Shown here: piece after piece, positions 3,184-3,501 of the stretch
How the letters are laid out: each line of letters begins with the position of its first letter
Position numbering within the stretch: position 1 is the stretch's first letter
Assembly (NCBI RefSeq): GCF_003334315.1
Contig: NZ_QOWR01000101.1
Reading direction: 5' to 3' (one strand)
Length of the DNA: 4,312 bases
From: Escherichia coli
Lineage (GTDB): Bacteria; Pseudomonadota; Gammaproteobacteria; Enterobacterales; Enterobacteriaceae
The notes under the pieces: model-generated
Seen by the model: only the letters and a program-made list of their open reading frames with translations
Told to the model about the DNA's origin: nothing
Database searches by the model: none
Translations under genes and position numbers: made by a program

Positions 3184-3501
3184 AAGCATGTTTCTGGCGG
3201 TCATAGCTCTATCGGCAAAGCGATATTTGCCATGGCGCGTCACAGTTCTGTTGAATGGGTTAATGGGCAGGAGGGTAACACCAGATGGGGAGGAATAATA
3301 AGAAAAAATCTCTCCCAGGAAGCTATCGTTGAAAAGCAATGTGACAGATATTCCATCTGATAAAAAGAATTATGGTTTAGCAGGAGCGCATTGTTGAGCA
3401 CAATGATGTTGAAAAAGTGTGCTAATCTGCCCTCCATTCGGCTGTTTCTTCATCGTGTCGCATAAAATGTGACCAATAAAACAAATTATGCAATTTTTTA
3501 G

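Follow-up and report, generated by a model that had tools for sequence, protein, structure and literature searches.

The reading frame of coaA, the gene for type I pantothenate kinase in Escherichia coli, stays open for 62 codons upstream of the accepted start. This open frame is very probably a chance property of non-coding DNA between coaA and thrU that holds a promoter and a leader, rather than an N-terminal extension of the protein. The accepted start (Met1) and the known internal start (Met9) stand, on direct evidence, and for coaA itself there is nothing new: the finding is ordinary and already known. Read along the coaA strand, the interval consists of a poorly conserved spacer (3369-3310), the coaA core promoter (3309-3258) and an 81-nt leader (3264-3184) without a Shine-Dalgarno (SD) sequence. 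The putative elements of the promoter are, in order, a T-run, TTATTA as a weak -35-like sequence, TG-T-TACCCT as an extended -10, and a C-rich discriminator. Transcription begins at A3264, and translation proceeds from AUG 3183 (Met1) and, less often, from AUG 3159 (Met9).

The locus and the open frame upstream of coaA

The window (i.e., the whole stretch of DNA analysed, 4,312 nucleotides) is the murB-birA / coaA / thrU-tyrU-glyT-thrT locus of an O157:H7-like E. coli. The genes murB and birA lie on the plus strand and coaA (2233-3183, from the list of open reading frames) on the minus strand; the tRNA genes thrU, tyrU, glyT and thrT occupy the plus strand from 3545 to 3986, thrU beginning at 3545. 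coaA is an essential gene. Its accepted start codon is ATG 3183-3181 and its stop codon TAA 2235-2233, and its product is identical to the known 316-aa CoaA (WP_000023081.1); RefSeq gives the 316-aa form with the MSIKEQ start both in the identical O157:H7 record and in K-12 MG1655 (b3974). The coaA-thrU region has 100% identity to O157:H7 records and at least 99% identity in about 5,300 of 5,421 complete E. coli genomes, and the interval carries no annotated feature in any of the 5,421 RefSeq E. coli genomes with the region, including O157:H7 and K-12. K-12 differs from the window by only two bases in the intergenic region. Coordinates of K-12 are converted to those of the window by subtracting 4171843, because the ATG of coaA at 4175026 corresponds to 3183 and thrU at 4175388 to 3545.

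The gene, its upstream frame and the codons under discussion are listed here, each with its basis in brackets:

2233-3183, minus strand: coaA coding sequence, type I pantothenate kinase, 316 aa (list of open reading frames, RefSeq, N-terminal peptide)
3157-3159, minus strand: internal in-frame start, Met9 ATG, the second documented translation initiation site (N-terminomics peptide MTPYLQFDR)
3184-3369, minus strand: stop-free continuation of the coaA frame, 62 codons, very probably non-coding (translation, chance estimate, non-conservation)
3370-3372, minus strand: in-frame stop TAA that closes the open frame (translation)
3337-3339, minus strand: in-frame TTG, 75 nt upstream of the transcription start site (sequence, list of open reading frames, transcription start)
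3241-3243, minus strand: in-frame GTG, codon -20, within the leader, without an SD (sequence, duplex energy)
3202-3204, minus strand: in-frame ATG, codon -7 (MTARNMLM...), within the leader (sequence)
3187-3189, minus strand: in-frame ATG, codon -2 (MLMSIKEQ...), overlapping the MazF ACA site 3191-3189 (sequence)

The original prediction had described the frame as stop-free upstream of MSIKEQ, which is correct, but had given its length as 156 nt (52 codons), where translation gives 186 nt (62 codons). It had also placed an ATG at 3339; the codon 3339-3337 reads TTG, which is the first NTG codon of the open frame, and "MLFNDSF..." exists only as a TTG-initiated open reading frame. The other codons that it named are all present in the sequence: two in-frame ATGs, at 3204 and 3189, and, within the gene, the ATG of Met9 (3159-3157). 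It had made no claim that the extension is translated.

The mRNA before the accepted start reads ...GACCGCCAGAAACATGCTT-ATG. Anti-SD duplex energies reveal no SD at any candidate start, the accepted one included, just as had been predicted: the best pairing to the 3′ end of 16S rRNA ranges over all candidates from 0.4 to -3.3 kcal/mol, compared with -11.6 kcal/mol for AGGAGG. As the accepted start is itself without an SD, the lack of one does not discriminate among starts, and the choice of start is indeed ambiguous from a single sequence, as the same prediction had maintained.

The open frame is real, yet it is not beyond chance expectation. When the 361-nt intergenic region was shuffled with its dinucleotides preserved, the frame was open for at least 52 codons in 7.8% of shuffles and for at least 62 codons in 4.7%, and the analytic chance of 62 open codons is 3.1% (with 5.45% stops per codon). 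In two other frames of this interval, stretches of 69 and 58 codons are likewise free of stops. By our own arithmetic, a rate of 3-5% over about 4,300 genes predicts considerably more than a hundred extensions of this kind in each genome.

The coaA locus was obtained from 80 Enterobacteriaceae species representatives, and the 420 nt upstream of codon 1 were aligned for 77 of these which, together with the window, makes 78 sequences. The median open length upstream of codon 1 is 11 codons, and the length is at most 27 codons in 66 of the 78 species; it reaches at least 52 codons in nine, five of them Escherichia. An in-frame TGA lies 22 codons upstream of codon 1 in E. albertii. The frame is open for 11 codons in Salmonella, 9-29 in Citrobacter, 8-19 in Klebsiella, three in several Enterobacter and two in several Kosakonia, and for 14 and eight codons in Pantoea and Mixta, respectively. 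Many of the insertions and deletions in the upstream alignment are not multiples of three, which breaks the frame. Among six Escherichia lineages, the 186 nt contain 17 variable sites, distributed over codon positions 1, 2 and 3 as 4, 8 and 5, i.e., without a third-position bias, and most of them would change the hypothetical amino acid. Stops, frame-breaking insertions and deletions, and the absence of a third-position bias are thus the pattern of non-coding DNA. The original prediction had named stops or frameshifts in the orthologous upstream frames as evidence against an extension, and these are found across genera.

Transcription and translation starts of coaA

Full-length primary transcripts are tabulated with both of their ends in Supplementary Data 1 of the SMRT-Cappable-seq study (PMC6131387). 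Its sole coaA entry runs from 4174045 to 4175107 of NC_000913.3 on the reverse strand, has 56 transcription start reads and fully covers b3974 only (PMC6131387). In the window, this transcript extends from 3264 to 2202 (1,063 nt), and its 3′ end at 2202 falls in the T-run that trails the hairpin downstream of the coaA stop codon. The original description of the coaA promoter reportedly noted a poor match to consensus and a transcript of about 1.1 kb. The features that these data define are as follows:

3264, minus strand: coaA transcription start site, an A (SMRT-Cappable-seq, K-12 4175107)
3184-3264, minus strand: coaA 5′ untranslated leader of 81 nt, stop-free in the coaA frame over 27 codons (transcription start 4175107, K-12 offset)
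3537, plus strand: transcription start of thrU-tyrU-glyT-thrT-tufB, divergent from coaA (SMRT-Cappable-seq, K-12 4175380)

The coaA transcription start comes from one data set (56 reads, apparently from a single one of the two condition sheets), which leaves room for a minor upstream start. A consensus scan gave one example of such a possible start, TCAACA-17-CATAAT at 3397-3369; as a promoter this match was rejected, since it is not kept in the three other sampled Escherichia lineages and has no mapped transcription start behind it. Neither coaA nor its coordinates are in the transcription start table of Ettwiller (2016) or among the entries listed from Kim (2012). With transcription starting at 3264, the mRNA of this promoter lacks TTG 3339 and the 25 codons that come directly after it, whereas GTG 3243, ATG 3204 and ATG 3189 lie downstream of the transcription start and are all on the mRNA. 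The middle of the leader (3257-3205) is unconserved, with only two of its 53 columns reaching 90% identity. A search of 3000-3700 against Rfam (cmscan, E up to 1) returned only tRNA-Thr and a sub-threshold chance match on the complementary strand of that tRNA. An attenuator or riboswitch in the 5′ region of coaA was rejected on these grounds, i.e., no Rfam match and a leader that is unconserved from +8 to position -22 of the AUG.

The starts of translation have been seen directly. In N-terminomics of K-12 (2026, TRAINSPOTTER, PMC13245402 Table S2), a table of genes with more than one initiation site backed by N-terminal peptides, coaA has exactly two translation initiation sites, 4175026 and 4175002. 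The site at 4175026 is the database start, with a peptide of residues 2-17 that starts SIKEQ; the site at 4175002, eight codons downstream, has the peptide MTPYLQFDR, residues 9-17 (PMC13245402). These two sites are 3183 (Met1) and 3159 (Met9) in the window. No upstream N-terminus of coaA is in Table S2, where starts at AUG 3204 and GTG 3243 would be invisible because the peptides that they yield, (M)TAR and (M)TR, fall below the length that the method can see; nor is the MLMSIKEQ... N-terminus that would arise from AUG 3189, although its peptide would be detectable (PMC13245402). N-terminal proteomics of CoaA, which the original prediction had put forward as a check, thus places the N-termini at 3183 and 3159 only, and its statement that the two reported starts are Met1 and Met9, and not an extension, agrees with these peptides. 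Across the 78 species the codon for Met9 is ATG in 64 and ACG in 14. The main text of the Ribo-RET study (Meydan et al., bioRxiv 10.1101/520783) does not mention coaA, nor do the main texts of two small-protein Ribo-seq preprints, and coaA was not found in the accessible supplements of a Salmonella riboproteogenomics paper.

Taken together with the alignment, these results leave practically no chance for a 368-aa CoaA proteoform initiated at TTG 3339, or for longer forms where TAA 3372 is CAA; the 368-aa proteoform is effectively already refuted. Such forms draw on the open frame and on automatic gene callers, which yield products of 368 aa and 424 aa, and in some public E. coli assemblies TAA 3372-3370 does read CAA, giving 424-aa gene calls that cross the thrU promoter. 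The TTG, however, is 75 nt upstream of the mapped transcription start and has no SD, its frame is interrupted in E. albertii and in almost every other genus and is without a third-position bias, and N-terminomics detected no upstream N-terminus. In E. coli strain 1442, the beginning of this frame has given way to an insertion sequence. The 424-aa form would in addition have to be read through the thrU promoter region.

Short extensions might be produced at a low level or under specific conditions from the leader AUGs at 3189 (MLMSIKEQ...) or 3204. Both AUGs are on the mRNA, and with respect to an SD the accepted start is no better placed than either of them. Public gene calls of 318 aa are numerous. 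The near-start sequence AUGCUUAUG is conserved; codon 1 is ATG in 74 of the 78 species and codon -2 is ATG in 63. Codon 1 is AAA in three Atlantibacter species and in one record labelled C. freundii, so that these must start at codon -2, which makes the -2 AUG the obligatory start in Atlantibacter. Codon -2 is AAG in Kosakonia. Furthermore, coaA is among the transcripts processed by MazF, with cleavage 8 nt before the AUG (PMC5001579). A MazF cut at ACA 3191-3189 would be a possible route to a short extension, as the shortened mRNA would then have its 5′ end two bases from the -2 AUG. Against this, N-terminomics shows SIKEQ... and MTPYLQ... but not MLMSIKEQ..., a detectable peptide, codon -7 is ATG in only 27 of the 78 species, and the conservation of AUGCUUAUG could just as well come from constraint on the region where the ribosome binds. 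In E. coli, initiation at the -2 AUG is conceivable and is not shown by N-terminomics; as an explanation of the frame upstream of Met1, short extensions are improbable.

The conserved block upstream of coaA

Between the spacer and the unconserved leader lies the block already mentioned, and its features, together with an open reading frame on the opposite strand, are as follows:

3258-3309, minus strand: 52-nt block, nearly invariant in Enterobacteriaceae, probably the core promoter of coaA, from -45 to +7 (alignment)
3272-3280, minus strand: putative extended -10, TG-T-TACCCT, with the hexamer at -13 to -8 and TG at -16/-15 (sequence relative to the transcription start)
3296-3308, minus strand: -35-like TTATTA (3301-3296, 18-bp spacer) and T-run TTTTTT (3308-3303, -44 to -39), with a putative promoter role (sequence)
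3285-3332, plus strand: antisense 15-codon open reading frame behind AGGAGG (sequence)

On the coaA strand the block reads ATTTTTTCTTATTATTCC-N4-CATCTGGTGTTA(C/A)CCTCCTGCCCATT. Across the 78 species, 23 of its 52 columns are invariant and 37 are at or above 90%; in the core, 3285-3261 (-21 to +4), 24 of 25 columns are at or above 90%. Its conservation matches that of the coding start, with a mean majority frequency of 0.91 compared with 0.89 for the first 60 nt of coaA, whereas the leader at 3257-3205 and the upstream spacer at 3369-3310 are barely alignable. The core, CTGGTG(T/G)TA(C/A)CCTCC(T/A)GC(C/G)CATTG, is also present in Pantoea and Mixta (Erwiniaceae). No second copy of the block was found in E. 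coli genomes, where it is single copy. Since the block tolerates single-base deletions and its variable positions follow no three-base rhythm, the constraint is on the DNA and not on a protein. In E. coli strain 1442, ISEc52 is inserted between thrU and coaA; its end abuts 3314/3315, at a distance of five bases from the upstream edge of the block. The element takes the place of all the DNA upstream of the block, while the block, the leader and an unchanged coaA are preserved.

The transcription start, A3264, sits at the 3′ edge of the block. The hexamer TACCCT (3277-3272) has the transcription start 8 nt downstream, within the 5-9 nt expected for a -10 hexamer, with the C-rich discriminator CCTGCCC (3271-3265) between them. 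Its T, A and final T are invariant in the 78 species and its third base is A or C, many genera having TAACCT; the TG one base upstream of it (T3280, G3279) is invariant across the alignment, as is the T-run in the 78 species. In this assignment, the -10 and -35 elements have three plus three of the 12 consensus bases, plus the TG. Geometry relative to the transcription start, together with conservation, suggests that the block is a weak extended -10 sigma-70 promoter, in which the T-run and the -35-like sequence may serve as a -35 or UP-like element.

Several other readings of the same DNA were rejected. A sigma-32 reading of CCCCATCT fails as its CCCC is unconserved outside Escherichia and Citrobacter and there is no -35 at 13-15 nt. 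For a sigma-54 promoter (TGGCAC-N5-TTGCA), the first G's of the GG and GC elements in CTGGTGTTACCCTCCTGC are 14 nt apart, where 12 are needed. An alternative -10, TATTAT (3300-3295), predicts a start near 3288, compared with the observed 3264. A hairpin that precedes the T-run is strong only in loci with an upstream gene for a GNAT acetyltransferase; it is absent in E. coli and decayed where thrU is the neighbour, and it was not accepted as part of the element.

It is highly improbable that the plus-strand open reading frame at 3285-3332 is a real small protein or leader peptide whose coding function explains the conservation of the block. In E. coli an AGGAGG stands 10 nt before its ATG, the complementary strand reading GGGCAGGAGGGTAACACCAG-ATG, and, by our own reading, the one base within it at which K-12 differs (3314, C/G; CTC versus CTG) makes a synonymous change. 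The ATG, however, is replaced by ATT (Klebsiella, Raoultella) or AAT (Atlantibacter, Pluralibacter), the peptide is anywhere between 2 and 98 codons long, and its frame is not kept (NNKKK versus IIRKN). The SMRT-Cappable tables, which do not capture short RNAs, hold no plus-strand transcript that starts in the range considered, K-12 positions 41751xx, and the frame goes unmentioned in the main text, as accessible, of two small-protein Ribo-seq preprints. Probably, this open reading frame is only the complement of the promoter block, and we take the SD-like AGGAGG to be the complement of the discriminator.

In addition to being a promoter, the block could be the operator of a regulator of CoA synthesis bound over the -10, e.g., at a putative GntR/FadR-type TGGT-N3-ACC. 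The FadR/GntR-type operator consensus is TGGT-N3-ACCA, and CATCTGGT presumably matches the left half of the fadB FadR operator; this likeness is one of the points in favour of an operator. The FadR-like half-site ATCTGGT is intriguing in itself. A second point is the degree of conservation (24 of the 25 positions from -21 to +4 at or above 90% in 78 species, and kept in Erwiniaceae), which is far beyond that of a usual weak promoter, and a third is a genomic SELEX study that reports binding of NtrC and of RpoN-holoenzyme somewhere in the coaA-thrU spacer. The SELEX peak, however, at W3110 4173336, falls by our own conversion at about 3470 of the window, near thrU and not at the block, and at low resolution. 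The E. coli block has TGGT-GTT-ACC, and about 40% of genera have TGGTGTTAACC, in which the right half is shifted; the right half-site is poor, and the TGGT-N3-ACC register is lost in the many genera with TTAACC. The variation at this base is what one would expect of the third position of a -10 hexamer, which is unconstrained. A search of the accessible literature found no link between FadR and coaA transcription. An operator superimposed on the promoter is thus unlikely.

A literature search likewise found no description of the transcriptional regulation of coaA. Perhaps the near-invariant core promoter marks an undescribed control point of CoA synthesis, either through a repressor over the -10 or because the promoter is kinetically tuned and responds to growth rate or ppGpp. 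Alternatively, it may be that, after a MazF cut, the -2 AUG starts a leaderless-type coaA mRNA and gives a CoaA two residues longer. These suggestions are speculative and rather improbable. The rigid conservation of the promoter of the gene that controls the rate of CoA synthesis is, nevertheless, the only biologically interesting lead from this locus.

Comparison with known systems

The curated 316-aa CoaA is right, and the automatic public calls of 318, 325, 368 and 424 aa are not trustworthy, which is a matter of annotation hygiene. The case also illustrates that a long open extension without an SD can be settled without new experiments, by a mapped 5′ end, N-terminomics and a cross-genus alignment. 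It is the same case as other spurious long open reading frame calls that arise from longest-frame bias, the 368-aa and 424-aa products standing beside the curated 316-aa form, and no difference from them is apparent.

E. coli coaA has two in-frame translation starts, Met1 and Met9, as N-terminomics shows (PMC13245402) and as Song and Jackowski reportedly found in 1992. The window has the same gene with an identical product and both starts, at 3183 and 3159; nothing in it differs from this dual-start arrangement, of which the reported extension is no part.

The N-terminal extensions detected by Ribo-RET, as far as the accessible text of that study describes them (bioRxiv 10.1101/520783), share with coaA an open frame and in-frame NTG codons upstream of the annotated start. 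coaA differs from them in that its distal codon is untranscribed, its frame is unconserved and no extended N-terminus was detected.

With extended -10 (TGn) sigma-70 promoters the block shares the TG, a hexamer with its key T, A and final T, a start mapped 8 nt downstream of that hexamer, a poor -35, a G+C-rich discriminator and an A/T-rich upstream part. It differs from them in the very weak hexamer TACCCT and in a degree of conservation that is unusual for a promoter.

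Conserved block and hairpin upstream of coaA

Two features lie between coaA and thrU, close to the coaA transcription start site:

Window 3258-3309, minus strand: conserved block of 52 nt, near-invariant across 78 Enterobacteriaceae species
Window 3314/3315: junction of an ISEc52 insertion between thrU and coaA in E. coli strain 1442 (locus L086, NZ_CP184048.1)

The conserved block coincides with the core promoter of coaA, and the mapped transcription start site (3264) is at the end of the block. The core of the block has also been kept in Pantoea and Mixta, and the rest of the coaA–thrU intergenic region is far less conserved than the block. 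In strain 1442, the junction with ISEc52, which is an IS3-family element with a frameshifted transposase, is five bases upstream of the block; the end of the element carries TTGACC near the junction, which, judging by its sequence, could add an outward -35.

The block includes a run of six T residues (3308-3303). In many genera, a strong hairpin, GTGATGCTTTC-N4-GAAAGCATCAC, is present about 10 nt upstream of this T-run (coaA loci of other genomes: L019-L027, L030, L038-L040, L066, L072, L076, and others), and its stem shows compensatory changes, e.g. GTGACGC/GCGTCAC and GCGATGC/GCATCGC. The hairpin comes after a gene that is located upstream of coaA in the same orientation; in Kosakonia sacchari (L021), this gene matches a GNAT-type acetyltransferase, with scores that fall short of the NCBIfam cut-offs. 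The hairpin has decayed in genomes with thrU as the neighbour (median -7.5 versus -14.5 kcal/mol), and in E. coli it has gone. The hairpin cannot be regarded as a canonical intrinsic terminator, because 8-10 nt separate it from the T-run.

The thrU side and the convergent ends of coaA and birA

The coaA–thrU spacer is listed among the targets of NtrC, with 63% intensity in genomic SELEX-chip, and also among those of the NtrC-dependent RpoN holoenzyme (PMC8743547). Coordinate conversion puts the SELEX-chip location at about window 3470, with a resolution too low to place a site. Further towards the tRNA genes, on the minus strand at 3545-3618, the Rfam Plastid-ycf2 5′UTR RNA gave a sub-threshold match (31.4 bits, versus a gathering score of 65.7), which was rejected as a chance match to a tRNA-like structure, this stretch being the complement of tRNA-Thr.

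At the other end of coaA, the gene converges with birA:

Window 2195-2235: convergent ends of coaA and birA, with the birA stop at 2204

The mapped 3′ end of coaA (K-12 4174045, window 2202) lies in a run of T residues after the hairpin GCAGGGGAGC-TAAT-GCTCCCCT, so the terminator and the end of birA overlap. This terminator may act in both directions.

Reading frames and starts around coaA codon 1

The following reading frames and start codons are found around the beginning of coaA:

Window 3285-3332, plus strand: ORF of 15 codons, antisense to the coaA promoter, preceded by a consensus AGGAGG
Window 3201-3233, minus strand: upstream ORF of 10 codons within the coaA leader, out of frame with coaA
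Window 3187-3191, minus strand: in-frame AUG two codons 5′ of Met1, with an overlapping ACA; ATG in 63 of the 78 species
Window 3157-3159, minus strand: alternative start at Met9; ATG in 64 and ACG in 14 of the 78 Enterobacteriaceae species

In other genera, the plus-strand ORF keeps neither its start codon nor its frame or length, so it is probably no gene. The 10-codon upstream ORF is located in the non-conserved portion of the leader, and it ends in a stop codon that shares bases with the ATG at 3204 (ATGA).

Automatic calls of 424, 368, 325 and 318 amino acids exist for the coaA locus in the public protein collection (entries P0001, P0002, P0003, P0005 and P0021). The 424-residue calls have Q in place of the TAA at 3372-3370, a codon that is presumably CAA in these forms, and their frame then crosses the thrU promoter region.

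The AUG at -2 is the sole possible start of coaA where codon 1 is AAA, i.e., in Atlantibacter (L038-L040) and in a ‘C. freundii’ record (L032). The coaA mRNA is reportedly cut by MazF at the ACA that in E. coli overlaps this AUG (PMC5001579). The Met9 start is absent from both Erwiniaceae examined (L084, Pantoea; L085, Mixta); a CoaA of 308 amino acids, beginning at the equivalent of Met9, is annotated in some public records, e.g. in Shimwellia (P0092).
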